Origin: an uncultured Bacilli bacterium
GTDB taxonomy: Bacteria > Bacillota_I > Bacilli_A > RF39 > UBA660
Reading direction: 5' to 3'
NCBI GenBank assembly: GCA_947588935.1
Contig: CANQAU010000002.1
Span: 1-41,878 of the forward strand
DNA: 41,878 bases
Shown here: positions 4,823-37,760 of the stretch, piece by piece
How the letters are laid out: the number at the start of each line of letters is the position of its first letter
How positions within the stretch are numbered: position 1 is the first letter of the stretch
Made by a program: the position numbers and the translations under genes
The notes under the pieces: generated by a model
Database searches by the model: none
What the model was told of the DNA's origin: nothing
Seen by the model: the letters and a program-made list of their open reading frames with translations, nothing else

Positions 4823-5371
4823 TTAATCGCTTATTTTTAATACGGCGCTGAAGTTTTTGCCTCTATCATCCAACTGATCGGCATCTGTCTCTTTATAGGT
4901 GATGGTTAATGTAAAGTTTTTGGTTTCTCCAGAATTGATTTTTAATCCGGTTATTAAATCCGTATCATCTGTCGTTGTCGCTGGTAGTGTAACATTGTCT
5001 TCTTCGGATATTTCTTCATTTAATCCATCAGATAATGTAACAATTAAATCATCTTGATTTACAAAGTTATTGATTACGCTATCCCATACCAAACGGTAAG
5101 TAATGGTTCCACTACCGGAATTGGTTACTTGAAATGTTTTGGTTACTTTATCGCCAGGAATGAGATTTTCTCCCGTTATGACACCGTCTTTGTCTGTTAG
5201 AGAAAATTCAATTTTTGCTCCGGTTATCTGTGTGTCAAAGTCCGTTTCTGGCATCTTGATTGTTGATGTGAAAAAGGCATATGTTCCAGAGATAACAATT
5301 CCAATTAAAATTACGATTGAAATAATCAATGTTATTACTAGCAAGCGATTATTTTCTTTTTGTGGTTCCAT
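4823..5371 (-). CDS. secreted TasA/camelysin-like protein with SipW-type signal peptide
   Basis: The N-terminus has a basic stretch, one hydrophobic helix, then SGTYAFFTSTIK (compare the GGTFAYFSD / GGTWAAFND cleavage region of CalY/TasA). LIPGDKVTKTFQVTNSGSGT resembles the TasA-family L(K)PGD...F.F.N.G strand. C-terminal strand RGKNFSAVLKISD. SD AGGTGA. Confidence 0.6.
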   Translation of the reverse strand: MEPQKENNRLLVITLIISIVILIGIVISGTYAFFTSTIKMPETDFDTQITGAKIEFSLTDKDGVITGENLIPGDKVTKTFQVTNSGSGTITYRLVWDSVINNFVNQDDLIVTLSDGLNEEISEEDNVTLPATTTDDTDLITGLKINSGETKNFTLTITYKETDADQLDDRGKNFSAVLKISD

Positions 5372-5442: not shown

Positions 5443-5934
5443 TCATGTATTGATGACAAATTTTCCAGTTATTTTTTTGCCCATATCGGTTTCATTGGTT
5501 GAAGGCTGATACCATAAAGTGATTTTGATGTTTACGGTACTGTGTGCGTTTATTGTAGCACCGTTTAACAAAGGACTATTTCTTTTGGGAAATACTTCAT
5601 GGTCCACCATTGGTTTTTCATCTATCCACAGATTATATTTTAAAAATCGTTGTGCACTTAAAGGATTTTTTAGGTTGTCTACTGCTAATGTATATTTTTT
5701 GTCGACATCATTGTCATTGGTTATTTGCAGTTTTATTTCTTGTTGAATCTCTTGGAATCCCATTTCGAATTGAAAGGTTTTTTCTTCCATTTTTAATGGT
5801 AAATCGGTAGTCATCGGTTCTGGCTTTTTTTCTTTTTGGGTATTGATGAAATAAATTGTTGATAGAATTATGATGCCAAGAACGAAAAAAGCAAACAGAC
5901 GCATTTTATCGGCTTTGGTAAGTTTTCTTTTCAT
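5443..5934 (-). CDS. membrane-anchored or secreted protein, distant member of the same beta-sandwich family
   Basis: I trimmed the track ORF (5443..6075) to the internal ATG at 5934 (MKRKLTKADKMRLFAFFVLGIIIL...). That start has SD AGAGGA and removes the 134-nt overlap with trxB. It has a single N-terminal helix and the C-terminal strand MGKKITGKFVINT shared with the paralogs at 22.9-26.3 kb. Confidence 0.5.
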   Translation of the reverse strand: MKRKLTKADKMRLFAFFVLGIIILSTIYFINTQKEKKPEPMTTDLPLKMEEKTFQFEMGFQEIQQEIKLQITNDNDVDKKYTLAVDNLKNPLSAQRFLKYNLWIDEKPMVDHEVFPKRNSPLLNGATINAHSTVNIKITLWYQPSTNETDMGKKITGKFVINT

Positions 5935-5941
5935 ACATCCT

Positions 5942-9950: not shown

Positions 9951-10056
9951 AAAACTCCCTCTTTTGGGGCTTTATTCTACAATAAATTTTGACAATTGTC
10001 AATTTTCTCTCTAAAAAACTCCGTTTCTTTACTTCAAACGAGGTTTTATGATTTTT

Positions 10057-12962: not shown

Positions 12963-12990
12963 AAAAAAAGAAAAGCTTTTTCAAGCTTCG
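12963..12990 (-). terminator. intrinsic terminator overlapping the stop codon of the 387-aa gene
   Basis: Minus strand reads GAAGCTTgaaAAAGCTTTTC followed by TTTTTTT. Confidence 0.55.
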
Positions 12991-14144: not shown

Positions 14145-14221
14145 AAAACACCTCAATATTCCTATGATGTTATTATTTTAGCATATATTTTCTAGAAAAA
14201 AAATGTATTCCTCGTAAGTTT

Positions 14222-14989: not shown

Positions 14990-15059
14990 TTTATTATATC
15001 CGAAAATGAATTTTTTCCAACAAAAAATGTAGATGGTTGTCTACATTCTTTTTCGTTTC

Positions 15060-16682
15060 CTATACTCTTTTTTCTAGGATATCCATAATGTTTGGTAACA
15101 TTTGTTTTTTTCTCGATACCAAGTCTGGAATAAATTGTCCTTCTTCGATGTCTTCATATCCAAAGGAATCGGCGACGATGTCTTTGGATTCGGTATTATA
15201 AAATACATAGGAACCATTTTGAATCACATCTGTGACAAATAAGGTGACGATTCCATATTCGCCTTTGGCAATTTCATCCAATTTTTGAATATATTTTTCT
15301 TTGCTCTTATTAATCTCATCAATATCCATTGTGATAATTTGACTGATACCTAAAGTTGTATTTCCCACTTTATATGATTTGAAGTCTTGGAAGAAGACAT
15401 CTTCAATACTCATATTTTTGATGGAACTTGCTTCTGTGAGCATTTTTCTTCCATAGGTTGGAATATCTACTCCGGCAATATTTGCAAGAATTTCCGCGGA
15501 TTTTTTATCTTCTTCGGTCGCGGTTGGGCTTTGGAATAGTAAAGTATCGGATAAAATGGCAGATAACATAATGCCGGCGATGTCTTTGGGAATTTCGATG
15601 TGATATTCTTGATACATCTTACAGATGATGGTACAAGTACATCCCACCGGCATCGAACGGAAGTTGATTGGAATGCTCGTACCAATTGCTCCTAGATTAT
15701 GGTGATCGATAATTTCTTCGATTTGTGCTTCTTCAATTCCGGGAACACTTTGTTCAAAATTATTGTGATCCACTAGGATTACTTTTAATTTTGAATATTT
15801 TTCAACATCCGTTACTTTGATGACTCCTAGACATTCTTTTTTCTTATTGATCATTGGATAATTGGTATGTCCCAGTTTATTTGCTAAATCAATAAATTCG
15901 GTTCGATAATCCAGTTCATTTACAGTCGTTGGGGCTTTATTGATAACAAGTGTTGATATGTAATTACTTAATGGAAGGGCATTTCCGGTTTTAAATGTAT
16001 CCATCTTTGTTGATATGACATTAATCTTTTTTTCTTGAGCCTTTTTTAATAAATCATCTGGTAATTCATGTCCTCCGGTTAAGACAATTAATTCGACTCC
16101 ACAATCCATGGCATATTCGATAATTTTATAACGGTCGCCAATAATTAAAATATTCTCTTTTTTAAATTCAATATCTGCCAGAATGGTTTTACTTTGGTAT
16201 CCGCCAATCATGATTTCTCCATTGATATCATCTGTAAATTGGCAAATCTTTTTTCCTTTGATAACGTCTAAAATATTTTGATAAGATGTGTGAATGAGGT
16301 CTTTTTCTCCTTCTACTAGAAGCATAGCAATTTCTTTTAGGGTTACAAAGCCGGTTAAACGTTTCTTTTCATTGACGAGTGGAAGAGCAGTACAGCCACA
16401 TTTTTGCATGTAATGAATGGCACTTTCAATGGATACGTTTTCTGGTAAAACGGCTTTCTTATTGTATTCAATGTTTCGAAGTTGTACTTTTACATTGTTT
16501 AGATAGGCAGGTTCTTTGACATGAAAATAATCTAAGACAAATTTACTTTCGGCATTGATGTGACCAAGTACTCGCGGCTCAGTATTTTCTCCTAAGGCAT
16601 TTTTTAAATAAGATAAACTAATACTTGCACAGACACTATCTGTATCTGGATTTCGATGTCCAAAAACATAAACTTTTTCCAT
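15060..16682 (-). CDS. ppaC: family II (DHH) manganese-dependent inorganic pyrophosphatase with CBS/DRTGG insertion
   Basis: 540 aa. N-terminal VFGHRNPDTDS (DHH motif I), a long insertion between the DHH motifs with a CBS-like segment, DHHN, and a C-terminal DHHA2-like region. SD GAGGGGA. Confidence 0.85.
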   Translation of the reverse strand: MEKVYVFGHRNPDTDSVCASISLSYLKNALGENTEPRVLGHINAESKFVLDYFHVKEPAYLNNVKVQLRNIEYNKKAVLPENVSIESAIHYMQKCGCTALPLVNEKKRLTGFVTLKEIAMLLVEGEKDLIHTSYQNILDVIKGKKICQFTDDINGEIMIGGYQSKTILADIEFKKENILIIGDRYKIIEYAMDCGVELIVLTGGHELPDDLLKKAQEKKINVISTKMDTFKTGNALPLSNYISTLVINKAPTTVNELDYRTEFIDLANKLGHTNYPMINKKKECLGVIKVTDVEKYSKLKVILVDHNNFEQSVPGIEEAQIEEIIDHHNLGAIGTSIPINFRSMPVGCTCTIICKMYQEYHIEIPKDIAGIMLSAILSDTLLFQSPTATEEDKKSAEILANIAGVDIPTYGRKMLTEASSIKNMSIEDVFFQDFKSYKVGNTTLGISQIITMDIDEINKSKEKYIQKLDEIAKGEYGIVTLFVTDVIQNGSYVFYNTESKDIVADSFGYEDIEEGQFIPDLVSRKKQMLPNIMDILEKRV

Positions 16683-16740: not shown

Positions 16741-18693
16741 TTAATCGGTTTCACTTTTCATTTCAAATAAGATATCTCGAAGTTCCATCGCACGTTCAAA
16801 ATCCAATTCTTTGGCAGCTTTTTTCATCTCTTCTTCGATGCGGGCAATCATATTGATTTTTTCTTTTTTATTGATTTTCGTTTCTTTTTTCGCTGGTTTC
16901 ATGGTATTGGAGATGACTTCTTTAATCTCTTTTTCAATGGTTTTAGGAATGATGTGATGTTGACGATTGTATTCTTCTTGGATTTGACGACGGCGCTTGG
17001 TTTCGGTAATGGCTTCGTTCATGGCATCGGACATGGTATCTGCATACATAATTACGTGACCGCTCGCATTTCTTGCACATCTTCCAATGGTTTGAATTAA
17101 ACTTCTTCCACTTCTTAAAAAACCTTGTTTATCGGCGTCTAGAATACAGATGAGACTGACTTCTGGAATATCGATTCCTTCTCGTAATAAGTTAATTCCG
17201 ACAACACAGTCATACATTCCTAATCGTAAATCGTGAATGATTTTTAAACGTTCTAAGGTTTTAATTTCGTTATGTAAATACGCTACTTTAATATTCATTT
17301 CTTTTAAGTAATTGGTTAATTCTTCGCTCATGCGAATGGTTAACGTGGTAATTAATACTCGTTCATTTTTTTCGATTCGCTGGCGAATTTCACTGATTAT
17401 GTCATCAATTTGGCCAAGCGATGGTTTGACTTCAATGGTTGGATCTAATAATCCGGTTGGACGAATGATTTGTTCAACAAACTCGCCATGAACTTTTTCT
17501 TTTTCATAATCTCCTGGTGTAGCAGAAACGTATATGGCTTGATGAATTTTCTTTTCAAATTCATCGTATTTTAAAGGTCGGTTGTCGAGTGCACTTGGAA
17601 GACGAAACCCATAATCGACTAGGGTTTGTTTTCGTTGGCGATCTCCATTGTACATTCCTCTTACTTGAGGAAGTGTGACATGAGATTCATCAACCACTAA
17701 TAAAAAGTCTTTGGGAAAGAAATCAATTAAACAGGTTGGTGTTTCTCCTGGACCCCGCAGTGCCAAATGACGAGAATAATTTTCAACGCCACTACAAAAG
17801 CCTGTTTCTTTTAACATTTCAATGTCATAATTGGTTCTTTCGCGTAATCTTTGCTCTTCTAATAATTTATTTTGACTCTTTAATTCTTCTAAACGATTTT
17901 TTAATTCTTCTTCAATTCTACGAATGGCTTCTTGCATTTTTTCATCGCTGGTTACGAAATGGCTAGCCGGAGAAATTGTGATGGTTTTCTTTTCTTGAAT
18001 GATGGCTCCGGTGACCGGGTCAAATGTACATAAACGATCTACTTCATCCCCAAACAATTCAATTCTTGTTCCATTGGCATGTTCATTGACGGGAATAATG
18101 TCGATGATATCTCCTCGGACGCGAAATGTTCCACGGTGAAAGTCAATATCACTACGTTCATAGGTCATTTCAATTAATTTGGTAATGATTTCATTTCTTT
18201 TGATGTGATCATGTAAAGTGAGCACGAGCATTTTATTTTCGTATTCTTCTTTTTCACCGATTCCATAAATACAGGATACACTGGCTACAACAATGGTATC
18301 TTGATAATTAATTAAGGCACTGGTCGCTGCATGACGAAGTTCATCAATTTCATCATTAATGGAAGAATCTTTTTCGATATATGTATCACTACTTGGTACA
18401 TACGCTTCTGGTTGGTAATAATCGTAATATGATACAAAATATTCGACATGATTCTTTGGAAATAATTCTTTTAATTCGGCATAGAGTTGTCCAGCTAAGG
18501 TTTTGTTATGGGCGAGAACGAGAGTTGGCTTATTTACTTCTTTTATGACATTGGCAATGGTAAATGTTTTTCCAGTTCCGGTTGCTCCTAACAATACTTG
18601 TTCTTTTTTTCCTTCTTGAATCCCCTTTACTAACTCAGCGATTGCTTTTGGTTGATCGCCGCTCGGTTGAAATTTTGATACTAATTCAAACAT
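16741..18693 (-). CDS. uvrB: excinuclease ABC subunit B
   Basis: Start moved to the ATG at 18693 ([18 protein letters not shown]...) because of a perfect SD AAGGAGA. Motifs: [10 protein letters not shown] Walker A, DESH box, beta-hairpin region [10 protein letters not shown], and C-terminal UVR domain ([15 protein letters not shown]). Confidence 0.97.
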
Positions 18694-18865
18694 AATTTTT
18701 CTCCTTACTATTGCTACTCTCAATCACAAAATTCGTGTCCATATCAAATTTTTGCTTTCAAAATCTGACTTTTTTGTTAGGACACGAATGGTGGTCACAA
18801 ATTTACCCAATCACACTAAATCATCTTAAATGAATTTTAGTATTTTATATTATCACTATTTTATA

Positions 18866-18896: not shown

Positions 18897-19144
18897 TGTT
18901 ATTATTTTTCACTTTTTCTTGATATTTTATGTTAGGAAACTCATGTAAATACTCTTTCTACCATAGAATTTGTTTTCGATGGTTTAGCAAATAATATTTT
19001 TGCTTCCGTTACTAACTTGCTAATTTCCAAAGCCATCGTATTATTTTTTTCCAATTCCTTTCTTTTCTTTGAATTTTTCAGACGCGTCTGAAAAATCATT
19101 CATCATTTCTTGTCAAGATAAAAAAATAAGATAGAAAATCTATC

Positions 19145-19681
19145 CTATATATTGATTCCTTTTTGCAATTCAAAAGCATAATTTAATGTTTTTCCTTGCA
19201 TTTCATTTCCAGTACGGTAATCCATCCACATTAATAAATTATAATCTTTTGTTTCACCGACGATGGAATCACTTGTGATTAAAAAATAATAATGATCTGC
19301 ATCTTCATACGTATACAATTCTTTTAAGGATTTGACTTCTGCTTGAAACAAAACATTTAAACAGTTATAATCTAAAGTTGAAGTTTTCGATACCTTCATT
19401 ATCAAATTAAAGTTTTCTTTTGTTAATGATTCATTTACTACGGAAATGGTCATTGGATTTAATGTATTGATGGCAACTTCATTATCCATTGGAAACATTG
19501 GTCCTTGTGGAGAATGGTTGACTTTTAAATAGGTATACTGGGCTTGATCATAAAAAGCAGCAGTGGATAAGTGCTCTCCAATATTTAATGTTTTCCATAG
19601 TGGATAACTAACAGCAATGACAACAAGCATCATGGTAATTTCAATTATTTTCCAACGAATAATTTTGTTAATTGTTTTCAT
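19145..19681 (-). CDS. small secreted protein, sixth member of the TasA-like family in the sipW locus
   Basis: 178 aa. One N-terminal helix, then HLSTAAFYDQ (compare TasA GGTWAAFND). C-terminal strand MQGKTLNYAFELQKG matches the family. The SD (GAGGGGG) sits rather far, 13 nt, from the ATG. Confidence 0.5.
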   Translation of the reverse strand: MKTINKIIRWKIIEITMMLVVIAVSYPLWKTLNIGEHLSTAAFYDQAQYTYLKVNHSPQGPMFPMDNEVAINTLNPMTISVVNESLTKENFNLIMKVSKTSTLDYNCLNVLFQAEVKSLKELYTYEDADHYYFLITSDSIVGETKDYNLLMWMDYRTGNEMQGKTLNYAFELQKGINI

Positions 19682-19749
19682 AATTTTAGTATACCCCCTC
19701 TGATAGATAATATTCTATCATATTTTCACAAAAAAAGCAAATCGACGGC

Positions 19750-20616
19750 TTATTTCCGGCGTTTGCCTTTCTTATTTTTTGGTTTATTTTCTGATTTTTC
19801 ATCGTTGGTTTTTAATTTTGGAAGTACGACGGTATCTGCAAAATCATTTTCCTTTTCTTTTGGTGCATCCACGGTTACTTTCGTTAATTTGCGATGCGTT
19901 GGAAGTGGATCTGGTTCTTCTGAACTTCGATCTAAGTTATAACGACGTTTTAATTCTTGACGAATGGCTTCTTTCTTTTTCTTTTCGCGATTGGCAACTT
20001 TGGCTTCGCTTTGTAAAGCCGTATTGACTTTTTTCTTTGCTCCTGTTAACCGGAAAATCTTTAAGATATCACTTAGAATGATAAACAAAGCCGGAACGAC
20101 TACTACGACTAACCAACCTGATGAAGTTGCTAAAAACTGTTGCAATTTTCCAAGTTGAGGAAGTTTTAAAATGACTTTTCCTTTAATATTTCGAAAAGGT
20201 ACTGTTGCTGTATCTGGTGTTGGGTTATTGTCTCCTTGCGTACGGTATTCGATGCCATTTTCGGTTTCAGCAATTCCGACCACCCGGTGAGTTACAATTA
20301 ATCCCTTGGAAATGGTACTGGTAGAAGTAAAGGTTATAATGTCGCCAATTTGAATATCTTCGGGTCGATTTACTTTGGCATTGACGATGACATCATATAC
20401 ATTTAAGTTTGGCGTCATACTTGGACTTACAATGGTATATAATCCAACGGCTGGAGAAAATTCTTCTCCTTTGCTTGCATAGATTTTATTCGCTACAAAA
20501 TAATATAATAAGAAACCGGCGATGAGTAAGAGAATGAGGAGTATTGTCCATGAAATAACATTTGCTATAAATTTAAAAATTTGCTTAAAACCATTATAGT
20601 TTTCGTGTTGTTTCAT
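19750..20616 (-). CDS. sipW: archaeal/ER-type signal peptidase I (SipW-like) with a long basic C-terminal extension
   Basis: SPSMTP (catalytic Ser box), IVTHRVVG (His box, Ser/His type rather than Ser/Lys) and QGDNN (box E). N-terminal and C-terminal TM helices are followed by approx 100 residues rich in K/R/E. SD AGGAAGGG. Confidence 0.8.
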   Translation of the reverse strand: MKQHENYNGFKQIFKFIANVISWTILLILLLIAGFLLYYFVANKIYASKGEEFSPAVGLYTIVSPSMTPNLNVYDVIVNAKVNRPEDIQIGDIITFTSTSTISKGLIVTHRVVGIAETENGIEYRTQGDNNPTPDTATVPFRNIKGKVILKLPQLGKLQQFLATSSGWLVVVVVPALFIILSDILKIFRLTGAKKKVNTALQSEAKVANREKKKKEAIRQELKRRYNLDRSSEEPDPLPTHRKLTKVTVDAPKEKENDFADTVVLPKLKTNDEKSENKPKNKKGKRRK

Positions 20617-20741
20617 AGCTACCCTTCCTATTCTATATTCTATATTTTATTATAATCGATGAAAGTAAAAAACTCAAGTTTAATCTTTTGAAGGAATGGT
20701 TTTTCGAACAAAAAAAGAAATGAATGGATGTTTTATTTCTT

Positions 20742-21122
20742 TTATTCTTTGTTTTTGGATAATCGCAAGATAAAATTGACGATTTTGATATAAATTTCAA
20801 TGATGGAGAATGATAAGGCAAAAGCACTTAACCATTCATATTTTTTTGGTAATTTTGCTTCGATACTGTAATTAATGACTTCAAAATCGACTAATAAAAA
20901 TAAAGAGGCAATGATGGCTTCTGCGGTATTGATGTTGTAGGTATCTACTGCAACCGTTTCGTTTGGTAACACTTTGGGTGTGAGGAAAAAGACGGTTACT
21001 CCGACTAGCGTTAATACAAGAAAGAATATGGTTTTCCCAATGATTCCACTTGCTGTACAAGCAGGATCCCCACTTTCTTCAACTTTATTGATTTTAGCAA
21101 TCATTGGATTTGCTAAAAACAA
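20742..21122 (-). CDS. hypothetical small membrane protein (weak call, TTG start)
   Basis: 126-aa ORF filling the gap between the Ca-repeat gene and sipW. It has two or three hydrophobic segments and a TTG start with a weak SD AGGAAAA. I recognise no family. Confidence 0.3.
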   Translation of the reverse strand: MFLANPMIAKINKVEESGDPACTASGIIGKTIFFLVLTLVGVTVFFLTPKVLPNETVAVDTYNINTAEAIIASLFLLVDFEVINYSIEAKLPKKYEWLSAFALSFSIIEIYIKIVNFILRLSKNKE

Positions 21123-21242
21123 CTCAAATTTTCCTAATTTTGAATTTACTACGCCATATAAACTCTACTCCTTTCTATTTTCATTAGAAAATTTTCTTTT
21201 AGTACCTGTCAACAATCCACAAAAAAAGAGCAATTTCTTGCT

Positions 21243-22844
21243 CTAATTTGCTGCTTCCACTTCAATTCTGGCCGTATAGTTTTTACCCATGTTGTAGTCT
21301 TGGTTTACTCCCGTTTCTAAGAAATCATATTGTAGTTCATAACTATAAGTCATTCCTGCTGGAATTAAGACATTTTTTAATAAGTATGTATCGGTTGTTG
21401 GTGCTGTATTTCTTCCTGTTAAAGTAATTCCATCTCTACGAATAGAATATACAAAATCACTTGGTGGATTGAAGGTATTACTTACTCCAGTTAATTTGAT
21501 GTTATAGAACAATGTTTGATTTGAACGGTTATTTACAGTAAAACGCATTGTTCCACTCCAACCTGGTTTTGCATCTTGAATATCAATTTTATTTAAATAT
21601 GAAACATATAGGATATTGTTATTTTGACTGGTAATGTCGATGCTTCCATCGCCTTCCGTTCCTAATGTACAATTTAATTCACATTTTCCATCATTATCGG
21701 TATCGACATTTTTATCTGGTTTACCATCATTATTGGTATCGACATTTAAATCTGGTTTTCCATCGCCGTTGGTATCCACATTTAAATCTGGGAAGCCATC
21801 ATTATTGGTATCACAGTTTAAATCACATACTCCATCTTTGTTGGTATCTTGATTCATTAAATTGTCATCTGGATTTTTATCTCCATCCGTATCTTTATTT
21901 ACGTCTGGTGTTCCATCTTTATCTACATCTAGGTCAATATTTGGTTTACCATCTTTATCGGTATCAACATTTAAATCTGGATTGCCATCGCCATCCATAT
22001 CGACATTGACATCTGGATGACCATCATCATTTGTATCACAGTTTAAGTCACATACTCCATCATTGTCGGTATCTTGATCCATTAAATTATGATCTGGTGT
22101 TCCATCGCCGTCGTTATCTTGATTGAAATGAGATTTATTATCGCCACCGTAATCAACATTTTTATCTGGTTTGCCATCATTATTGGTATCCACATTGACA
22201 TCTGGTGTTCCATCGCCATCGGTATCCACATTTAAATCCGGTTTGCCATCGCCGTCGGTATCGATGTTGGTATCTGCTTTTCCATCCCCATTGTTGTCAA
22301 TATTTAAATCTGGTTTGCCATCCCCATCGATATCGATGTTGGTATCTGGATAACCATCTTTGTTGGTATCACAATTGACATCACAAACTCCATCGCTATT
22401 ATTATCTTGATTCATGTGGTTAAAATCTGGTTTTTTATCATAATTGGTATCGATGCCAAAATGAGGAATTCGATCATGATTATAATCGATGTTGTAATCT
22501 GGTTTACCATCCCCATCACTATCACAATTGACATCACAAATGTTATCTCCATCTAAATCAATATTTAAATCGGTTTCACCATTTCCATCCGTATCACAGT
22601 TTAAATCGCATTTTCCGTCGCCATTGAAATCACAATTCAGTCCACATGTTTTTCCGCCTTCAATTGCTCCACCATAAAGGCGAATATAAGAATATGTGGC
22701 TCCAATCATTGCTAAAAATAAGATTAATAAGCATAGCAAGATAATTATAAAGGTTTTCTTCTTGGCTTGTTCTTGCTCTTCTGCTAAAAGCTCTTGATAT
22801 TGCTCTTCGAAATCGATATTTTCTACTGGCTTATTCTCTTTCAT
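21243..22844 (-). CDS. secreted Asp-rich Ca-binding repeat protein (thrombospondin type 3-like repeats) with a TasA-like C-terminal domain
   Basis: 533 aa. Signal/anchor FIIILLCLLILFLAMIGATYSYIRLY, then about 26 units of approx 12 aa (LNVDTDGDGKPD), some carrying CDxNCD. The last approx 125 aa form a beta-rich domain ending MGKNYTARIEVEAAN. SD AAGAAGGA. Confidence 0.8.
   Translation of the reverse strand: MKENKPVENIDFEEQYQELLAEEQEQAKKKTFIIILLCLLILFLAMIGATYSYIRLYGGAIEGGKTCGLNCDFNGDGKCDLNCDTDGNGETDLNIDLDGDNICDVNCDSDGDGKPDYNIDYNHDRIPHFGIDTNYDKKPDFNHMNQDNNSDGVCDVNCDTNKDGYPDTNIDIDGDGKPDLNIDNNGDGKADTNIDTDGDGKPDLNVDTDGDGTPDVNVDTNNDGKPDKNVDYGGDNKSHFNQDNDGDGTPDHNLMDQDTDNDGVCDLNCDTNDDGHPDVNVDMDGDGNPDLNVDTDKDGKPNIDLDVDKDGTPDVNKDTDGDKNPDDNLMNQDTNKDGVCDLNCDTNNDGFPDLNVDTNGDGKPDLNVDTNNDGKPDKNVDTDNDGKCELNCTLGTEGDGSIDITSQNNNILYVSYLNKIDIQDAKPGWSGTMRFTVNNRSNQTLFYNIKLTGVSNTFNPPSDFVYSIRRDGITLTGRNTAPTTDTYLLKNVLIPAGMTYSYELQYDFLETGVNQDYNMGKNYTARIEVEAAN
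21645..22649 (-). repeat. in-frame tandem 36-nt (12-codon) repeat array encoding DxDxDGxxD units, arranged in three approx 90-100-aa super-repeats
   Basis: Recurrent gatggtaaaccagat / gacggcgatggcaaaccggat-type units occur on the minus strand. Three blocks each start with N(H/L)M(N/D)QD..DGVCD(V/L)NCDTN.DG.PD. Confidence 0.85.
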
Positions 22845-22908
22845 AATTGTCCTTCTTTCGCTAACCTATTCTACGTATGATTATAGCATATTTCTTTTCT
22901 TTTTAGCA

Positions 22909-22938
22909 ACAAAAAAAATCTATTTCAAAAATAGATTT
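22909..22938 (-). terminator. intrinsic terminator after paralog 4
   Basis: Stem aaatctattt (22916-22925) / aaatagattt (22929-22938). A T-run follows on the minus strand (A-run 22911-22915 on plus). Confidence 0.6.
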
Positions 22939-22951
22939 CTTACTTTGATTT

Positions 22952-23638
22952 TTATACTGCTAACATTGCTGATATTTTTCCGGTTAATTTTTTACCAAAA
23001 TCATCATTTTGGTCGTTTCCTTTTTCAACATATTCAGCAACAATATAATAATACTTTTCCACCGTGGTTTGATTTGCCGTAATATGAATTACATCATCAT
23101 TTAAAATGGCTGTCGTATCATTTCCTTTTAATTTGGTTGTACCAATTAATTTTCCCAAACTAGATTCTTTTGAATCACAGGATTCTTTGTAATGCACAGT
23201 TCCGACACCATTTCCTGTTTCTTCTTTTTTACAATTGAAGAATCCAGCAGTGGCACTCACATCCGTATCGGATTCATATAATGTTAATTTGATGGCATCA
23301 TCTTCAAAAGCATTGGTTCCATCCCATTTGATGTTGATACTAGATGTTGCAACTTGACTGTTTTGTTGAGCATTTACGGTTATTTTTAATGCAGCGACTT
23401 CTTTATGACCCGGATAAACATCGTCTGCTTCAAACGAACCGGCTGATTTGGATGCGACACCCACAATGGTCGTACTTGCTACGTTACTTGCAGTAATACT
23501 TGTTGAACCATTGTTTCCTCCACTACCACGCTCATCTCTAATGGTTGCAGTAAAGTATGCAAACGTTGCACCTAACACTGAAATTAAAAGTGTTGCTATG
23601 GCAATTACGGTTAATATGATTGAGTTTTTTCTTTCCAT
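22952..23638 (-). CDS. secreted TasA-like paralog 4 (228 aa)
   Basis: MERKNSIILTVIAIATLLISVLGATFAYFTATI. Motifs DVYPGHKEVAAL, a Cys pair (FNCKKEE...YKESC), YYYIVAEY, and C-terminal QNDDFGKKLTGKISAMLAV. SD AAAGGAGA. Confidence 0.75.
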   Translation of the reverse strand: MERKNSIILTVIAIATLLISVLGATFAYFTATIRDERGSGGNNGSTSITASNVASTTIVGVASKSAGSFEADDVYPGHKEVAALKITVNAQQNSQVATSSINIKWDGTNAFEDDAIKLTLYESDTDVSATAGFFNCKKEETGNGVGTVHYKESCDSKESSLGKLIGTTKLKGNDTTAILNDDVIHITANQTTVEKYYYIVAEYVEKGNDQNDDFGKKLTGKISAMLAV

Positions 23639-23728
23639 GTTTATTCTCCTTTATTCTGTTTTTATGTTAGCAAAAAATGTTTTATCCTGCAATATTCTAA
23701 ACTGTCAATTGACATTATTTAACAACAT

Positions 23729-23760
23729 AAAAAAACCTATTATGGAAAATATAGGTTTTT
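23729..23760 (-). terminator. intrinsic terminator after paralog 3 (copy of the element at 24631)
   Basis: aacctat (23734-23740) / ataggtt (23751-23757). A T-run follows on the minus strand. Confidence 0.6.
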
Positions 23761-23831
23761 CATTATAAGGATACAGAATTTTTTTTATTTTTTATTTTAT
23801 TTTTTATTTTTTTAATAAGAGCGTAATCTTA

Positions 23832-24539
23832 TTAAGCAGCTAATTCTACAGAAATTTTACCTTCGAGTGTTTTACTAAAATCAGCATTTTGAGTTGAAGA
23901 TTTATTGATGTATTCTACTACAACATAGTAATAAACTGTTTTTCCAGTAGCACTACCAGTAATTTCTTGCCCTGTAAATTCAACTTTTTCGCCACTTAAA
24001 AGTTTTGTTTCTACAAGTGTTGCACCAGATGTTATTAATTTATTTGCAGAAGCACTCGTCCAATCATTACATTTATCAATGTAATGAATTTCTGTTTCTG
24101 TTGAACCTACATCATCAATGGCATGATTACAAGTAAAGTAATTATCTGTTGTTGCTATTGGAGTATCTTCTTCTGGTTCATATTTGTATAAATGAATATT
24201 GAAACTTTCTGCTGAATATTCATTTTTGGTTGCTTTATAAATAATATTAAATTTACTTATAGCATTTTCCGTAGATGTTGCTTGTACCGATAGTGCTGCA
24301 ACTTCAACATGTCCTGGATAGGCATCATCTTCACTAATATTCGCAGCAGCAGTTTCTACGTTTGCAATTATCGTATTACTTGCTACAGAACCAGCTGTTA
24401 CATTTGTTTTACCTTGATCTTCACCATATTTCTCCGTATTGATTGTTGCAGTGAAGTATGCAAATGTTGCTCCCACTACAGCGACAAGTAGGGTTGCAAT
24501 GGCAATTACTGTTAACAAGATTGTGTTCTTTCTTTCCAT
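23832..24539 (-). CDS. secreted TasA-like paralog 3 (235 aa)
   Basis: MERKNTILLTVIAIATLLVAVVGATFAYFTATI. Motifs DAYPGHVEVAAL, a Cys pair (FTCNHA...YIDKC), YYYVVVEY, and C-terminal QNADFSKTLEGKISVELAA. SD AAAGGAGG. Confidence 0.75.
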   Translation of the reverse strand: MERKNTILLTVIAIATLLVAVVGATFAYFTATINTEKYGEDQGKTNVTAGSVASNTIIANVETAAANISEDDAYPGHVEVAALSVQATSTENAISKFNIIYKATKNEYSAESFNIHLYKYEPEEDTPIATTDNYFTCNHAIDDVGSTETEIHYIDKCNDWTSASANKLITSGATLVETKLLSGEKVEFTGQEITGSATGKTVYYYVVVEYINKSSTQNADFSKTLEGKISVELAA

Positions 24540-24630
24540 CCTTTTCTTACCTCCTTTACTATAAAAATGGTAGCATAGTGTGTTTATAAAAAAGGGCTTG
24601 TTAGTGTTGAAAAACCATTTTTTTGAAAAG

Positions 24631-24660
24631 AAAAAACCTATTATGGAAAAAATAGGTTTT
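24631..24660 (-). terminator. intrinsic terminator after paralog 2
   Basis: aacctatt / aataggtt hairpin. A T-run follows on the minus strand. Confidence 0.6.
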
Positions 24661-24712
24661 CATTATAAGGATACAGAATTTTTTTATTTTTTTAATAAGA
24701 TTACGCTCTTAT

Positions 24713-25435
24713 TTAAGCGGCAAGTTTCACACTTACTTTACCTTTAAGTTCTTTGCTTTGACCTGTTGATGTTTGATTGCCATTATTTTTATATTCTACT
24801 ACAACATAAAAATAATAATCTTTGCCTTCTTCACTACCAGCTAATGTACCATCATAGATTATTTGATCTGTGATTTGTCCAGTTGTTAGTGGAGTTGTTG
24901 TTGGTTTTGAATCACCAAAAGTTGTTGTTTCTTCTTCTGCTGAACAAGTTTCAGAATATTGAATTTTTTGAGTATTTTCTTCTCCACCAGTGCTAGTTAC
25001 TTGCTTTTTGCATTTGAAGAAACCAACTTCGTCATCTTGATTTCCTGAAGCATCTATGGAAACCAAAGTTTCATCCTTTTTATAAACTCTTACTTCAACA
25101 TCACTTGTTGGGAATCCATTTGTTCCATTCCATACAATTTGAATATGACTTGATGCACTTGTTTCTGATGTTACTTTAACGGCTAAAGCTGCAACTTCTT
25201 TATGTCCTGGATAAACATCTGCTACGGTAAATTTACCTGCATTTTCTTCAACGTTACTAACAACAACAGTTTCAGCTACAGAACCAGATGAAATATTGGT
25301 TTGGCCTTTATCTTCGGTACCATCACGATTATCCGTGATTGTTGCAGTGAAGTATGCAAATGTTGCTCCCACTACAGCGACAAGTAGGGTTGCAATGGCA
25401 ATTACTGTCAACAAAATTGTATTCTTTCTTTCCAT
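24713..25435 (-). CDS. secreted TasA-like paralog 2 (240 aa)
   Basis: Same 33-aa N-terminus as paralogs 1 and 3. Motifs DVYPGHKEVAAL, a Cys pair (FKCKKQ...YSETC), YYFYVVVEY, and C-terminal KELKGKVSVKLAA. SD AAAGGAGG. Confidence 0.75.
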   Translation of the reverse strand: MERKNTILLTVIAIATLLVAVVGATFAYFTATITDNRDGTEDKGQTNISSGSVAETVVVSNVEENAGKFTVADVYPGHKEVAALAVKVTSETSASSHIQIVWNGTNGFPTSDVEVRVYKKDETLVSIDASGNQDDEVGFFKCKKQVTSTGGEENTQKIQYSETCSAEEETTTFGDSKPTTTPLTTGQITDQIIYDGTLAGSEEGKDYYFYVVVEYKNNGNQTSTGQSKELKGKVSVKLAA

Positions 25436-25537
25436 CTTCTTTCTTACCTCCTTTACTATAAAAATGGTAGCACAGTGACTCTCTAAAAGAGGTATAGTTA
25501 GTGTTAAAAATCCGTTTTTTTAATCATTTTTTGACAA

Positions 25538-25569
25538 CAAAAAAATCTATCTTTCGATAGATCTTTTTT
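25538..25569. terminator. hairpin terminator after paralog 1 (A-run and T-run on both sides)
   Basis: atctatc (25545-25551) - tttc - gatagat (25556-25562), flanked by aaaaaaa and tttttt. Confidence 0.55.
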
Positions 25570-25600
25570 CATTGGTTTAATAAGAATACAAAAATTCTTA

Positions 25601-26287
25601 TTAAGCAGCAAGTTCAACTGAAACTTTACCTTCTAGTGATTGACCCATTTCAGCATTTTGTTCGTCATCATTTGTGTATTCAACTACTATATAATAGTAA
25701 GCAGTTTTTCCAGGGTCTTCAGCTCCAGTAATGGTATCAGAAGCTAAAACTACTTCTTCTGCATTACCTTTTAAGGTTGTAGTTGTTCCAACTTGAGAAG
25801 CTCCAGTTAAGTTGTTTGTAGTAGCATTTGTCCAACCTGAACAAGTTTCAGAATATTGAACAGTTTCTGTACCAGTAACTTGCTTGTCACATGAAAATTG
25901 TGTTGCTGTTGTTGTAATTGGTGTGTCGCTTTTCATAACGTAAACTTTTACATGTGTTCCAAGATTGTTCGTCGTTACATTATACTTAATGTTAATCTTT
26001 ACAGGTGCATTCGTATCTGATTTCGCTGTTACAGATAATGCTGCAACTTCAACGTGTCCTGGATAAACATCAGTTGCGGTAAATTTACCAGCAGCGTTAT
26101 CTACGTTAGCAACGATCGTTTCACTTGCTACAGATCCAGCTGTTACTTTTGTTTCACCTTGTCCGCTGCCAGCTGTACGATCATCTTGAATTGTTGCTGT
26201 AAAGTATGCAAATGTTGCTCCTACAACTGCTACCAATAATGTTGCAATGGCAATCACTGTCAACAAAATTGTGTTTTTTCTTTCCAT
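25601..26287 (-). CDS. secreted TasA-like paralog 1 (228 aa)
   Basis: Same N-terminal peptide as paralogs 2 and 3, but encoded with many synonymous differences. Motifs DVYPGHVEVAAL, a Cys pair (FSCDKQ...YSETC), YYYIVVEY, and C-terminal QNAEMGQSLEGKVSVELAA. SD AAGGAGG. Confidence 0.75.
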   Translation of the reverse strand: MERKNTILLTVIAIATLLVAVVGATFAYFTATIQDDRTAGSGQGETKVTAGSVASETIVANVDNAAGKFTATDVYPGHVEVAALSVTAKSDTNAPVKINIKYNVTTNNLGTHVKVYVMKSDTPITTTATQFSCDKQVTGTETVQYSETCSGWTNATTNNLTGASQVGTTTTLKGNAEEVVLASDTITGAEDPGKTAYYYIVVEYTNDDEQNAEMGQSLEGKVSVELAA

Positions 26288-26317
26288 AATCCTTTCTGTA
26301 TCCTCCTTACAATAATC

Positions 26318-26346
26318 ATATTAACAAAAATTTTTTTAGAGTTCAA
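26318..26346 (-). promoter_or_regulatory. candidate sigma-A promoter of paralog 1
   Basis: Minus strand reads TTGAAC (26341-26346), a 17-nt spacer, TAATAT (26318-26323), then about 30 nt to the ATG. Confidence 0.55.
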
Positions 26347-26398
26347 CACTTTTTTGGGCGAAAATTCACAATTTAGACACATTTTTTATTTTTCTTGT

Positions 26399-27412
26399 TT
26401 ATTTTACGATTAAATTTGGCAATCCAAAGTAAATTTCTTTTTCTTGATTTTTGATGATGATGGCGTAATCTTCATAAATATAGTATTTTGATTGACCTTC
26501 TTGTGAAAGAAAACTGACAATTTGATTTTCTTCCTCGTCTTTTTCAATACTTGATATTATTTGGTCAATGGTTATTTTTTTATTTAATAAAGCTTCTTTT
26601 AAGGTATAACTTTTCTTTTCGATATTAATCCATAAGTCTCCATAAGCATAGATATTGAATGATTTTTCATCCTTTTCTTCTCTGGTGTAAATGGTTTGTA
26701 ATTCATTGGTGTTTTTATATTGAATTTGAAAATTTTTTTCCTTTCTTTCTTTTGGTTGATAATCGGATATGGAAATTCGTTTTCCATTTTTGGCCATGAG
26801 TGATATCCCATTTTCTACAGATATATCTAGTGAATATGTTTTTGCCGAATATTCTTTTCTTATCATTTTTTGAGATGCCAGTTCATCTCTTTTGGAATCT
26901 ATTTTTACAATAAATAATTCATTTTCATAGGAAAGACTAATCAAGATTGGTTGTCCTTCTGTATTCGTTTTCATCAGACGAATTTCATCTTTTTTTTGCT
27001 TGGTAATATTTTCTTTGAACTCTTTTAAAATGTATTCATTATAGGAAATTTCTTCGATGAGAACATAGTAATCTTTGGTGATAGCATCTCGATAAGAAAA
27101 TTCAAGTGGTTCTTCTTCCAATGCATTTAAATATCTTGTTTCTTCTTTTTGTTCTTCTTTTAATGTTTCATCATATTTTAAATTCAAAAAGCCGATATGA
27201 GATTTATGATATCCATTTAATTTATTATACGAAATGACTTTATACCCTAAACATAGATATTCCACGGTACCACCATCGCGATATACTTTTTCGGTGATAC
27301 AAAAAACTGGAGCATGATTACGCTTCACTTGAGTATAATCAATTATAAAAATGACGATCCATGAACAGATGATGAATAAAGTGATCATGGTTCCTTTTTT
27401 CCAATTTTTCAT
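26399..27412 (-). CDS. hypothetical N-terminally anchored protein
   Basis: 337-aa ORF. N-terminal helix TMITLFIICSWIVIFII followed by APVFCITEKVYRDGGTVEYLCLGYKVISY. I do not recognise the family and the SD is weak. Confidence 0.5.
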   Translation of the reverse strand: MKNWKKGTMITLFIICSWIVIFIIDYTQVKRNHAPVFCITEKVYRDGGTVEYLCLGYKVISYNKLNGYHKSHIGFLNLKYDETLKEEQKEETRYLNALEEEPLEFSYRDAITKDYYVLIEEISYNEYILKEFKENITKQKKDEIRLMKTNTEGQPILISLSYENELFIVKIDSKRDELASQKMIRKEYSAKTYSLDISVENGISLMAKNGKRISISDYQPKERKEKNFQIQYKNTNELQTIYTREEKDEKSFNIYAYGDLWINIEKKSYTLKEALLNKKITIDQIISSIEKDEEENQIVSFLSQEGQSKYYIYEDYAIIIKNQEKEIYFGLPNLIVK

Positions 27413-28097: not shown

Positions 28098-28130
28098 AAA
28101 AAAGTCCGAACTTTGTTAGTTCGGTTTTTT
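28098..28130. terminator. bidirectional intrinsic terminator between tRNA-Cys and the convergent ABC gene
   Basis: ccgaact (28106-28112) - ttgtt - agttcgg (28118-28124), with an A-run on the left and a T-run on the right. Confidence 0.75.
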
Positions 28131-30054
28131 AATTTTCCAGCTGATATTTTTTATTTTCAATTTCTTTATAAAAGGTAAAAATTAAAAAGTAAGAAAGAAA
28201 ATAGAAAATGAAGACTAATAAGATCGTTTGAAGAATGCGAATTTGGAAAACTGGAAAATAGATATATAACATTTGGGAGATGAAATGATTTAGTGTCCAT
28301 AAAAAGGCATAGGATAAAATGATGCTTATGAATAAACTAATGGATAGAATCACAAACAATTCCATTCCATAAATTCCTAATATGAACAGTGGATGAATGC
28401 CTTTTTCTTTTAAGAAAAGGATTTCTTTTTCATTCATCTGAATGCTGTTTTGGACATGGTGAAGAAGATTAAGAACGATGAAAGATCCTAAAACAATCAT
28501 GCCGATGATTCCAATGGTTTGGATGACTTTTAATAAAGAATCATAGTTTTCTAATTGATTGGAAACAATCGAAGTCACTTTATAATTTTTTTCTTTGGCA
28601 TAATTCATGATGTTTTGAATCTCTTTTGGATCTTTTAATTTGATTTTGACTTCATGCGTTAATGTATCGATTTGATGATTTTGACTTTTGATATACTTTT
28701 CGAAATCTCTGGTAACATATACGTCTTTATAATCCATCATACGATTGATATAGTCTTGATTGAGAAAATATTCTTTTAACGTAAAGTCGTTCGGAATCTT
28801 CTGTTTTAAAATTTCATATTTTTGGGTATCTCTTTGAATAATTCCCGCGATTTTGATGGGAATGTAATCTAGTAAAAATTCATGATTTAACAAATTTTCA
28901 TATGACCAATTTTGATTATGCATGATATTTTCTGCAAAAATGGTATCAATTAAAATTTCATTGGCATTTTGAGGCATTTTTCCTATTACCAGTTCTAATG
29001 ATTGGGAATTATCGATTTCATAAAAATCCATCGTTTTCACGCTTCTTTGATAATAAGCCGGTGTTTGATTGGTTGAAGGTTCGATATTTAATGTAAGGGT
29101 TGCTTGGGTATTTCGATTATAATATTGTTTTTTAAAAGATATTTCGTAGTTTGGTAAGTCTTTAACAATATTCTCTTTCGTTGTTTTCGTAATATCTAAA
29201 TAAAGAAAATTTGGTTTTTCATACATTAATGAAGCAAGATGAATTTGTTCTTTTTTAATGTTCATACATGCAAACGAAAAGAAAAAGAACAAAAATCCCA
29301 CACTTAGAATGATGATGGAAGTTGTGGTGCTTTTTCGCAAATGGGTCAAATGACTGGTGGCCAGTGTCTTCATGGCATGAAAAGATAAGAGGTGAATATT
29401 TTGCTCTTCGATTGTTTTTTCTTCTATTTTTCTTCGCTTTTCTATTTTTAGGGTTTTCTTTTCCAATTTTAACACATTACTGATTTGGGTTATTTTTTGA
29501 TCTTCGGGAAAAGAAATAATGACCAGAGCATTTTTACTCACTTCTTTTAAGAGGTTGATGATTTTTTCAATATCCTCTTCTTCGACATATTTGGTTGGTT
29601 CATCTAGTAAATAAATTTTGGCAGGTTTTAATAGGGTTTCGATCAAGGAAACTTTGGCTTTTTCACTTTTCGTTAGTTTTTTTATTTTTTTCTCTTTTAT
29701 TTTTTGTAAATTGAGTTTTTTTAAGTAATCGAGGGCTTTGGATTGATTTGAATTGATGAGCAGAAGATAGTTTATGACGGTCAATTCTGGGATTGTGAAA
29801 ACTTCTTGGTTATACATGGAAATGTTTTGATTTAAGTATTTTCGACTTTCTTTGATTGTATCGATTTCGATTTGATCATAATAAATATTTCCGGAATATT
29901 CAAAGTCTAGTAATCCAATTAGATTTAATAAGGTGGTTTTTCCACTTTGTTTTTTTCCAGTTAGAGCAAATAAACCGGTATTTGGAAAAGTGAAATTGAG
30001 ATCTTTTAAGATTGGGGTAGTCCATTCTTTATTTACTTTTTTTAATTCAATCAT
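28129..30054 (-). CDS. ABC ATPase fused to an FtsX-like permease; signature and H-loop motifs are degenerate
   Basis: 641 aa. Walker A GKKQSGKT and Walker B IYLLDEPT are present. The position of LSGGQ reads LTKSEKAKV, and no H-loop His is seen (VIISFPED). The C-terminal half has one TM, a large loop and three TMs (MacB/FtsX-like layout). SD AAAGGAG. Confidence 0.7.
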   Translation of the reverse strand: MIELKKVNKEWTTPILKDLNFTFPNTGLFALTGKKQSGKTTLLNLIGLLDFEYSGNIYYDQIEIDTIKESRKYLNQNISMYNQEVFTIPELTVINYLLLINSNQSKALDYLKKLNLQKIKEKKIKKLTKSEKAKVSLIETLLKPAKIYLLDEPTKYVEEEDIEKIINLLKEVSKNALVIISFPEDQKITQISNVLKLEKKTLKIEKRRKIEEKTIEEQNIHLLSFHAMKTLATSHLTHLRKSTTTSIIILSVGFLFFFFSFACMNIKKEQIHLASLMYEKPNFLYLDITKTTKENIVKDLPNYEISFKKQYYNRNTQATLTLNIEPSTNQTPAYYQRSVKTMDFYEIDNSQSLELVIGKMPQNANEILIDTIFAENIMHNQNWSYENLLNHEFLLDYIPIKIAGIIQRDTQKYEILKQKIPNDFTLKEYFLNQDYINRMMDYKDVYVTRDFEKYIKSQNHQIDTLTHEVKIKLKDPKEIQNIMNYAKEKNYKVTSIVSNQLENYDSLLKVIQTIGIIGMIVLGSFIVLNLLHHVQNSIQMNEKEILFLKEKGIHPLFILGIYGMELFVILSISLFISIILSYAFLWTLNHFISQMLYIYFPVFQIRILQTILLVFIFYFLSYFLIFTFYKEIENKKYQLEN

Positions 30055-31665: not shown

Positions 31666-31725
31666 ACTATCTCTCCCTATATCATCATTATACAACAAAA
31701 AAAATATGAAAAAAACTCCATATTT

Positions 31726-37666: not shown

Positions 37667-37760
37667 TTGCTTTTCCCCCAACACTCAAATTTGAATTTAT
37701 TATAACACTTTTTTTCTTTTTTCTTACTCTTTTTTCTTTCAATGGTATGGGTTGTTTCAT

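Follow-up and report, generated by a model that had tools for sequence, protein, structure and literature searches.

Nine co-oriented open reading frames (ORFs), encoding proteins of 178, 288, 126, 533, four times 228-240, and 337 amino acids (aa), were examined on the minus strand at positions 19145-27412 of a 41,878-nt stretch of DNA (the window; G+C content of about 32%) from an uncultured Bacilli bacterium (GCA_947588935.1, contig CANQAU010000002.1). The cluster is flanked by uvrB (16741-18723) on one side and by an ABC/FtsX gene (28129-30054) on the other, and was found to include a gene for a SipW-type signal peptidase I (SPase I), four paralogs here termed the majors, a large subunit of 533 aa and a minor protein of 178 aa (Table 1). 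The ORFs and motifs reported in an initial annotation of this locus were all located on the minus strand as described, including (i) GATFAYFTA in all four majors; (ii) GATYSYI in the large subunit; and (iii) STAAFYD in the 178 aa protein; the C-terminal strings it had quoted were also present. Overall, we suggest that the cluster probably specifies an extracellular filament or matrix system of the TasA superfamily with its own SipW-type signal peptidase. This reading is carried by the homology among the encoded proteins, by the dedicated peptidase and by the co-conservation of peptidase and subunit genes.

The 288 aa protein had been assigned to the archaeal/endoplasmic reticulum-type signal peptidases, and this assignment was borne out by a match of 95.9 bits to TIGR02228 over residues 28-183 (cut-off 51.85), while the match to NF046067, the Bacillus SipW equivalog, was 84.4 bits and thus below its cut-off of 190. 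Passing the first model and failing the second indicates SipW-type chemistry, yet not an ortholog of the Bacillus SipW. The SPSMTP, VTHRVV (THRV) and QGDNN (GDNN) motifs were present, with SM.PN, THR, and GD.N conserved at 90% or more among 41 orthologs from related loci; based on established knowledge of SipW, we take the Ser, His, and Asp of these motifs to be the catalytic residues (no Lys). After a second hydrophobic segment, the protein was found to carry a Lys/Glu-rich tail of about 100 aa (residues ~190-288), which lies outside the coverage of the SipW and TIGR02228 models and varies in length among orthologs, whose total lengths are 209-374 aa. The three sequences inspected share a recurring EPDP(L/I) motif in this tail.

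The gene order was compared across 84 related loci. A sipW gene was detected in 43 of these, all among the 50 loci whose sequence extends 6 kb or more past the last major gene in the downstream direction, and the subunit genes were thus found to be co-conserved with the SipW-type peptidase, as the initial annotation had anticipated. The conserved order was major(s), a small subunit of the class represented in the window by the distal ORF 4823-5371 (S2 class; not in all loci), large subunit, SipW, and in some loci the 178 aa class, with S2 genes of other genomes sitting between the major and large-subunit genes. Orthologs of the large subunit ranged from 425 to 1279 aa and were always encoded between the majors and sipW, while the 178 aa class directly followed sipW in 16 of the 43 sipW-bearing loci. 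Between one and six majors were present per locus, some major clusters were located away from sipW, and uvrB adjoined the cluster in several of the related loci examined. A gene with an HD_3 domain (PF13023) flanks the cluster in relatives (14186-15109 in locus L001 and 7906-9522 in locus L004), on a side that differs by lineage; it does not lie beside the window cluster. At the family level, the majors returned 1061 matches in 90%-identity clusters, none with a Pfam domain, and the sole source name was 'hypothetical protein [Bacilli bacterium]'; at 50% identity the family comprised at least 1657 clusters (E ≤ 1e-3). Relatives numbered 370 in GTDB contigs limited to one genome per species, and the best 80 of these were nearly all from uncultured gut metagenome-assembled genomes (MAGs; rabbit, mouse, chicken, ruminant, and human) and were labeled Bacilli, Tenericutes, Mycoplasma sp. 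CAG:776, or Candidatus Caccenecus.

Profiles built from homologs in related loci were used to determine how the encoded proteins relate to one another; the alignments for the S2 class and the 178 aa protein were shallow because only 4 and 9 homologs, respectively, were found. When aligned by hhalign, the majors and the S2 class matched over their full length (99.6% probability, E 1.5e-23, 175 columns), the S2 class matched the C-terminal ~140 aa of the large subunit at 99.4%, and the majors matched this C-terminal domain at 94%; the second distal ORF, 5443-5937, matched the same domain at 72.5% and the S2 class at 61%. Similarly, a hidden Markov model (HMM) from relatives of 4823-5371 retrieved seven family proteins and no others from all window ORFs, namely 4823-5371 itself, the large subunit (71.6 bits), the four majors (63-70 bits), and 5443-5937 (20-22 bits). 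Taken together, these profile comparisons show the four majors to be homologous to the two distal ORFs and to the large-subunit C-terminal domain, in a set of beta-sandwich proteins whose N-terminal signals are of the TasA type. The initial annotation had treated six neighbors in the cluster as one family; this held for five of them (the four majors and the 533 aa protein), with the two distal ORFs in addition, but not for the 178 aa protein, which showed no significant similarity. Two further members had been placed about 14 kb away, and both were recovered, as 4823-5371 (SGTYAFFTS ... GKNFSAVLKISD) and 5443-6075. The latter is a TTG-start ORF that overlaps the 3′ end of a thioredoxin-reductase-like gene (5942-6832) by 134 nt; its true start is probably the ATG at 5937, giving a protein that begins MKRKLTK... 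and ends ...MGKKITGKFVINT.

The relationship of this family to TasA, camelysin, and BsaA was examined by model, profile, and structure searches. The distal small subunit 4823-5371 was the only window member to pass Pfam Peptidase_M73 (PF12389; 31.0 bits vs 22.5, E 2.8e-7), such that the proposed Peptidase_M73 similarity stood for this protein and not for the four majors, the large subunit, or the minor protein, which were unmatched. Its scores against TIGR04090 (BsaA family; 35.4 bits vs a cut-off of 60) and the TasA model were sub-threshold, as were those of 4823-5371 and three majors against TIGR04088, the SipW-cognate signal model that the window majors had been expected to match (15.2-16.9 bits vs a cut-off of 19; 15.5-16.9 for the three majors, just under it). 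Among 107 diverse majors, TIGR04088 was matched by 54 at E ≤ 0.01 (best E 1.5e-5), PF12389 by seven, TIGR04090 by six, and any other family by at most three. When the S2 profile was searched against 177,635 PDB sequences, the top two matches were TasA structures, 5of1 (E 0.005) and 8aur (E 0.008), aligned in the mature region around NLKPGDK (an L-x-PGD motif). The next matches of this profile were the archaeal type IV pilins 6nav and 8tib (E ~0.05), in which a hydrophobic N-terminal helix leads into a beta domain; these are probably compositional and not significant. Thus, the family link to TasA appears weak and transitive through 4823-5371, yet consistent. The AlphaFold2 model of the major 25601-26287 (39 sequences; mean predicted local distance difference test score [pLDDT] 83, predicted template modeling score 0.75) consisted of a helix at residues 3-25, a low-confidence stretch at about 25-60 and a confidently modeled all-beta core at 68-226. 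The first ~35 mature residues were modeled at a pLDDT of 48-62, which would fit a strand that becomes ordered only in a polymer. The best, weak Foldseek neighbors of this model were jelly-roll capsids and ConA-type lectins (TM-score ≤ 0.35).

The majors were found to combine a near-invariant N-terminus with a divergent remainder. Across 107 cluster representatives, residues 1-31, ME(K/R)KNT(I/V)LLTVIA(I/V)ATLLVAVVGATFAYFTA, had a mean identity of 90%, compared with 25% for the rest of the protein (the ectodomain). Three of the four window paralogs had zero amino-acid differences among themselves in this segment, and 10-13 of its 31 codons differed synonymously between window paralogs. These synonymous differences argue that the peptide itself is under selection and led us to reject recent gene conversion as the source of the identical N-termini. 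The FAYFTA cleavage/strand motif was nearly invariant, as were two Cys residues. At its end, the invariant stretch has a small-x-small SPase I site of canonical form, and this end aligned with the cleavage and donor-strand region of TasA (GGTWA↓AFND, where the arrow marks the cleavage position, predicted for the window proteins); the equivalent in the majors would be A27↓Y28-F29-T-A-T-(I/V)33. Some members of the major family are longer (390-700 aa; P0129-P0136, P0197, P0219-P0222, P0228, P0236, P0248, and 7998-9971 in locus L036), with an N-terminal family domain followed by a long C-terminal extension that often ends in G-[ST]-G-x-x-x-[DN]-P-[FY]; a Pfam scan of the 500-700 aa members returned almost nothing, the single hit being one fn3 domain.

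The large subunit was predicted to consist of an acidic N-terminus, a transmembrane (TM) or signal segment with GATYSYI at its end, repeats spanning about 330 aa and the C-terminal beta domain (residues ~396-533). Its repeat region has seven CxxxC pairs, and the protein holds 24 [DN]x[DN]x[DN]Gxx[DCEN] motifs with a 12-residue period, at a combined Asp and Asn content of 42%. This is the pattern of DxDxDG calcium loops. The initial annotation had described a giant calcium-binding subunit; the motifs were confirmed, and calcium binding itself is suggested by them. Matches of 60-64 bits to NCBIfam models of Sdr/Clf adhesins were far under the curated cut-offs of 999-2500, and we take them to reflect Asp-rich composition and not homology.

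The minor protein was modeled by AlphaFold2 from 9 sequences (pLDDT 78.7) as a helix at residues 2-45 followed by a beta-sandwich at 50-174, whose best, weak Foldseek neighbors were collagen-adhesin domains, CBM3, and diphtheria-toxin R domains. It had no Pfam or NCBIfam match, matched only itself, and aligned with the majors, the S2 class, the large-subunit C-terminal domain, and TasA at hhalign probabilities of at most 1.1%. In a global hhalign, its TM helix, L-x-P motif, and C-terminal GNEMQGK...F.L strand were colinear with the family (E 0.09), and local and global alignments together with HMM searches detected colinear short motifs only (E 0.05-0.09). From its gene position, TM helix, and STA↓AFYD motif, the protein is proposed as a candidate anchor or nucleator. 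No homology to TapA was found, the Pfam and NCBIfam scans being without a match; the earlier statement that the cluster has no TapA-like gene agrees with this result.

A separate terminator for each subunit gene had been proposed and was supported by the hairpin search. Terminator-like hairpins with T-runs were located behind the four majors, the large-subunit gene, and the 178 aa gene, and none was located behind sipW. The terminator search found no hairpin in the 68-nt spacer between sipW and the 178 aa gene, and these two genes are therefore probably co-transcribed. AGGAGG-type ribosome-binding sites precede the majors. In the spacer between paralogs 2 and 1 (23639-23831), about 40 nt of A-rich sequence (AAAAAAATAAAAAATAAAATAAAAAATAAAAAAAA) were noted upstream of paralog 1; the corresponding spacers of the other paralogs lack this tract. 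Two of the nine ORFs were judged not to belong to the system. The DUF4362 gene, which the initial annotation had included in the range of the cluster, had a counterpart in 0 of the 84 related loci. The match of ORF 20742-21122 to Pfam BaxI_1 was confined to the last 40% of the model (positions 137-231 of 233, E 8e-15), and the ORF resembles the remnant of a truncated gene inserted here; since no more than 100 nt separates sipW from the large-subunit gene in locus L001, the fragment looks specific to the window.

Table 1. Coordinates of the cluster genes, the distal family members and the terminator-like elements in the window.
Feature	Coordinates	Strand	Remarks
Major subunit paralog 4	25601..26287	-	228 aa; predicted signal peptide MERKNTILLTVIAIATLLVAVVGATFA↓YFTA, then beta-sandwich domain; S2-class HMM 64 bits
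Major subunit paralog 3	24713..25435	-	240 aa; TIGR04088 15.9 bits vs cut-off 19
Major subunit paralog 2	23832..24539	-	235 aa; TIGR04088 16.9 bits vs cut-off 19
Major subunit paralog 1	22952..23638	-	228 aa; most divergent of the four
Large subunit	21243..22844	-	533 aa; repeats and C-terminal TasA-superfamily beta domain
BaxI_1 fragment	20742-21122	-	126 aa, TTG start; between large-subunit gene and sipW
SipW-type signal peptidase I	19750..20616	-	288 aa; TIGR02228
Minor protein	19145..19681	-	178 aa; N-terminal TM helix, STA↓AFYD, predicted beta-sandwich
DUF4362 gene	26399-27412	-	337 aa
Distal small subunit (S2 class)	4823..5371	-	182 aa; passes Pfam Peptidase_M73
Distal family member	5443..5937	-	164 aa from ATG at 5937; TM helix and beta domain ending ...DMGKKITGKFVINT
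Terminator-like hairpin and T-run after paralog 4	25541..25566	-	-10.3 kcal/mol
Terminator-like hairpin and T-run after paralog 3	24632..24661	-	-9.8 kcal/mol
Terminator-like hairpin and T-run after paralog 2	23730..23761	-	-8.4 kcal/mol
Terminator-like hairpin and T-run after paralog 1	22913..22941	-	-8.0 kcal/mol
Terminator-like hairpin and T-run after large-subunit gene	21227..21244	-	hairpin search
Terminator-like hairpin and T-run after minor gene (cluster end)	19127..19147	-	-6.9 kcal/mol

By analogy with the TasA/TapA, BsaA, AbpA, and AbpX/Tafi/CanA systems, we infer cleavage, strand exchange, calcium binding, and accessory roles for the products of this cluster. In such a filament system, the precursors would be exported by Sec and cut by SipW after ...GATFA, the counterpart of TasA GGTWA↓AFND. 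The cut would expose an N-terminal strand, YFTAT(I/V), for insertion into the beta-sandwich of a neighboring subunit. TasA polymerizes by donor-strand exchange in this manner, with residues 28-38 as the donor strand and F29 and I32 buried (PMC9674648). The four separately terminated majors may provide alternative or mixed building blocks, while the large subunit may form a calcium-binding DxDxDG stalk of variable length with the family domain at its tip and could serve as a spacer, tip, or base. Membrane anchoring and/or nucleation would fall to the 178 aa protein with its TM helix, in a TapA-like role without homology to TapA. The low-confidence mature N-terminus of the major model and the YFTA motif are compatible with polymerization by donor-strand exchange.

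A number of results weigh against this filament interpretation. The four window majors had no Pfam match (none to PF12389 at E ≤ 1) and remained under the TIGR04088 cut-off, and the PF12389 match of 4823-5371 aligned residues 16-91 with profile positions 10-79 of 196, and so did not reach beyond the signal and the initial third of the domain. PDB sequence searches with one major and two major profiles returned nothing relevant, and hhalign of a major profile with a single TasA sequence gave a probability of 1%, though the expected motifs were aligned. The initial annotation had proposed to look for a TasA-like jelly-roll; beta-sandwich models were obtained, but Foldseek against the PDB returned nothing below an E-value of 1e-3 for the major or the minor, and TasA, AbpA, and similar proteins were absent from the top 50 matches of the major. 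Relatedness of the 178 aa protein to the other subunits was not demonstrable, with only architecture and short motifs shared. No Pfam repeat family, TSP_3 and Excalibur included, matched the large subunit, whose putative calcium binding is predicted from the motif. Furthermore, the large, S2, and 178 aa proteins, all presumed SipW substrates, have hydrophobic signal regions (h-regions) different from those of the majors, and thus simple targeting to SipW does not explain the ~90% identity of the latter.

The strong constraint on the N-terminus could also be accounted for if the majors form a variable surface coat, the leading alternative, which we consider possible though unlikely. Here the majors would be monomeric or laterally packed envelope proteins with the N-terminal helix as a signal-anchor, and independently transcribed, fast-diverging paralogs would supply antigenic or phage-receptor variation to a host-associated lineage, with SipW processing or shedding part of the pool. 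The sharp drop in identity from residues 1-31 to the ectodomain among the 107 representatives and the selection at the protein level implied by the synonymous codon differences between window paralogs are in line with such a coat, as are the separate terminator for every gene, the one to six paralogs per locus with more paralog clusters away from sipW, and the origin of the relatives in gut MAGs; with different h-regions beside the same SipW, peptidase recognition alone needs no invariance. However, the invariant stretch ends in an SPase I site that aligns with the TasA cleavage site, the SipW-cognate signal model matches 54 of the 107 members, the dedicated peptidase is conserved beside the genes, and the homology points toward cleaved, polymerizing proteins. 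The signal peptides of Bacillus TasA and CalY are also well conserved, which is the basis of TIGR04088 and counts against a coat. More doubtful still is an extension of the filament interpretation, according to which the 31-residue N-terminus of the majors would be a membrane-embedded assembly module that acts beyond targeting and couples SipW cleavage to strand exchange, giving a membrane-rooted heteropolymeric fiber or coat. This scheme starts from the high identity of the N-terminus beside a drifting exported domain and from its absence in other substrates of the same SipW. The N-terminus may hold pre-subunits in register at the membrane, interchangeable majors may serve antigenic or phage evasion, and a calcium-stiffened DxDxDG stalk of variable length may space the fiber from the cell; if true, TasA-type proteins of an abundant gut lineage without cultures would follow a hitherto undescribed assembly logic.

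We regard it as improbable that the proteins are SipW-dependent secreted adhesins or binding proteins that do not polymerize, soluble or wall-associated, with the large subunit as a calcium-dependent stalk adhesin and the paralogs differing in ligand. The lack of a structural match to TasA-type filaments is in keeping with this explanation, as are the weak Foldseek neighbors (lectins, carbohydrate-binding modules, and collagen-binding adhesin domains), the 425-1279 aa range of the large subunit, which resembles that of stalk adhesins, and the long C-terminal extensions of some family members, one with an fn3 domain. Against it, those Foldseek matches are not significant, and strand donation is suggested by the conservation of the N-terminal strand motif and by the poor order of the mature N-terminus; furthermore, filament formation has been described for the characterized relatives TasA, BsaA, AbpA, and AbpX (PMC9674648, PMC11580942, PMC9245690, bioRxiv 10.64898/2026.01.04.697558). 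A type IV pilin-like filament that retains the N-terminal hydrophobic helix as its core is very improbable and was rejected, for although the helix is very strongly conserved beside a variable globular domain and the S2 profile weakly matched 6nav and 8tib, those matches were not significant and were driven by the hydrophobic helix, no prepilin-peptidase site (G at -1 followed by F/hydrophobic-T-L-I-E) was present, no PilB-, PilC-, or PilD-like genes were found in the window, and the adjacent peptidase is an SPase I and not a prepilin peptidase.

The TasA-superfamily filament interpretation was further considered in light of characterized systems. The tapA-sipW-tasA operon of B. subtilis (Peptidase_M73; 5of1, 8aur; PMC9674648, PMC10151520) is alike in (i) the dedicated SipW-type SPase I beside the subunit genes; (ii) signals that end in small-aromatic-Ala followed by aromatics (GGTWA↓AFND compared with GATFA↓YFTA and STA↓AFYD); (iii) an early L-x-PG(D/H) motif, a C-terminal QN..G(K/N)...alternating strand and an all-beta domain; and (iv) a minor protein gene beside sipW. 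It differs in that the window majors fall under Pfam/NCBIfam cut-offs with no Foldseek match to TasA, and the window locus has another gene order, no TapA homolog, four tandem majors, an additional DxDxDG-stalk large subunit, a SipW tail of ~100 aa, and a host from an uncultured gut lineage. The sipW-bsaA-bsaB-bsaC operon of C. perfringens (TIGR04090), for which SipW-BsaA polymers, multi-paralog operons, and possible heteropolymers have been noted (PMC11580942), likewise joins sipW to genes for at least two remote homologs of TasA and for a larger accessory protein, and 4823-5371 and 6 of 107 majors have sub-threshold TIGR04090 matches. The scores are under the family cut-off (35 vs 60), the accessory protein of the window is not vWA, no type IV pilus genes lie nearby, and no conserved Asn/Glu/Lys isopeptide triad was evident on non-rigorous inspection of the alignments. 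Donor-strand filaments of the TasA superfamily have been described across domains; they have a TIGR02228-type peptidase of their own, include minor, tip, and anchor proteins, and show strand complementation that depends on calcium (bioRxiv 10.64898/2026.01.04.697558). The archaeal filaments, i.e., the AbpA bundling pili (PMC9245690), AbpX, Tafi, and CanA (bioRxiv 10.64898/2026.01.04.697558; PMC12337348), similarly have a TIGR02228-type SPase I beside the subunit genes and major, minor, tip, and anchor components. Calcium takes part in the assembly of AbpX and CanA, whereas the putative calcium sites of the window lie in a separate repeat stalk and not at the strand-complementation interface. 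In the Foldseek search with the minor protein, CanA came up as a weak neighbor at rank 37 (E 0.014); neither sequence nor fold searches gave a significant match to the archaeal filaments, and the window host is bacterial. The variable surface lipoproteins Vsp, Vlp, and Vsa of Mycoplasma offer a functional analogy, with a conserved N-terminal signal, divergent surface domains, and tandem paralogs in host-associated, low G+C organisms. Unlike these, the window proteins have no lipobox, are paired with a SipW-type SPase I and not Lsp, and share no homology with them, and no invertible or slippage elements were identified.

The claim of the initial annotation that this composition is undescribed was overstated, as SipW-linked multi-paralog TasA/BsaA operons with minor subunits, tips, and anchors had already been reported in work from 2022 to 2026 (PMC11580942; bioRxiv 10.64898/2026.01.04.697558). 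The system type, the dedicated peptidase, and the multi-paralog operon are in the literature, and thus the locus is not a new kind of apparatus and overturns no concept. The novelty lies in a branch that has diverged strongly, lacks annotation and has parts specific to its lineage, namely (i) the Pfam-invisible majors; (ii) the DxDxDG stalk fused to a family domain; (iii) the post-sipW TM protein without TapA homology; (iv) the tandem, independently terminated majors; and (v) an unusually constrained signal peptide. Within the collection of papers searched, none combined RF39 or RFN20, order names for gut Bacilli of this kind, with SipW, TasA, or camelysin. Filaments of the TasA superfamily are increasingly seen as a means of building biofilm matrices in more than one domain of life; those characterized are from cultivable Bacillus, Clostridium, and extremophilic archaea, and the locus shows a large Pfam-invisible branch to be conserved in MAGs of uncultured animal and human gut Bacilli/Tenericutes. 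If the products form fibers, they would be candidate determinants of aggregation, mucosal adherence, and phage or immune interaction in organisms without genetics or cultures, and a family model would annotate the thousands of proteins found, which are called 'hypothetical protein' where a source names them.

Elsewhere in the window, several large ORFs were noted. The minus-strand ORF 34955-37684 (909 aa, no Pfam match) appears to hold several modules of ~100 aa with the signature (K/Q)(R/C)(H/A)G..L(L/V)EW..L(S/T).EE...Y..A. The plus-strand ORF 37835-39745 (636 aa, no Pfam match), the sole large gene on that strand in this part of the window, has an N-terminal TM segment and many short Cys-containing modules (C..G..L.G..C / Y.CP.GY). 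Four other large ORFs (7731-9950, 12981-14156, 30067-31698, and 32239-33396) carry hydrophobic segments resembling membrane anchors and matched no Pfam family at E ≤ 0.001. Judging from these sequence features, the window is rich in putative lineage-specific envelope ORFans.

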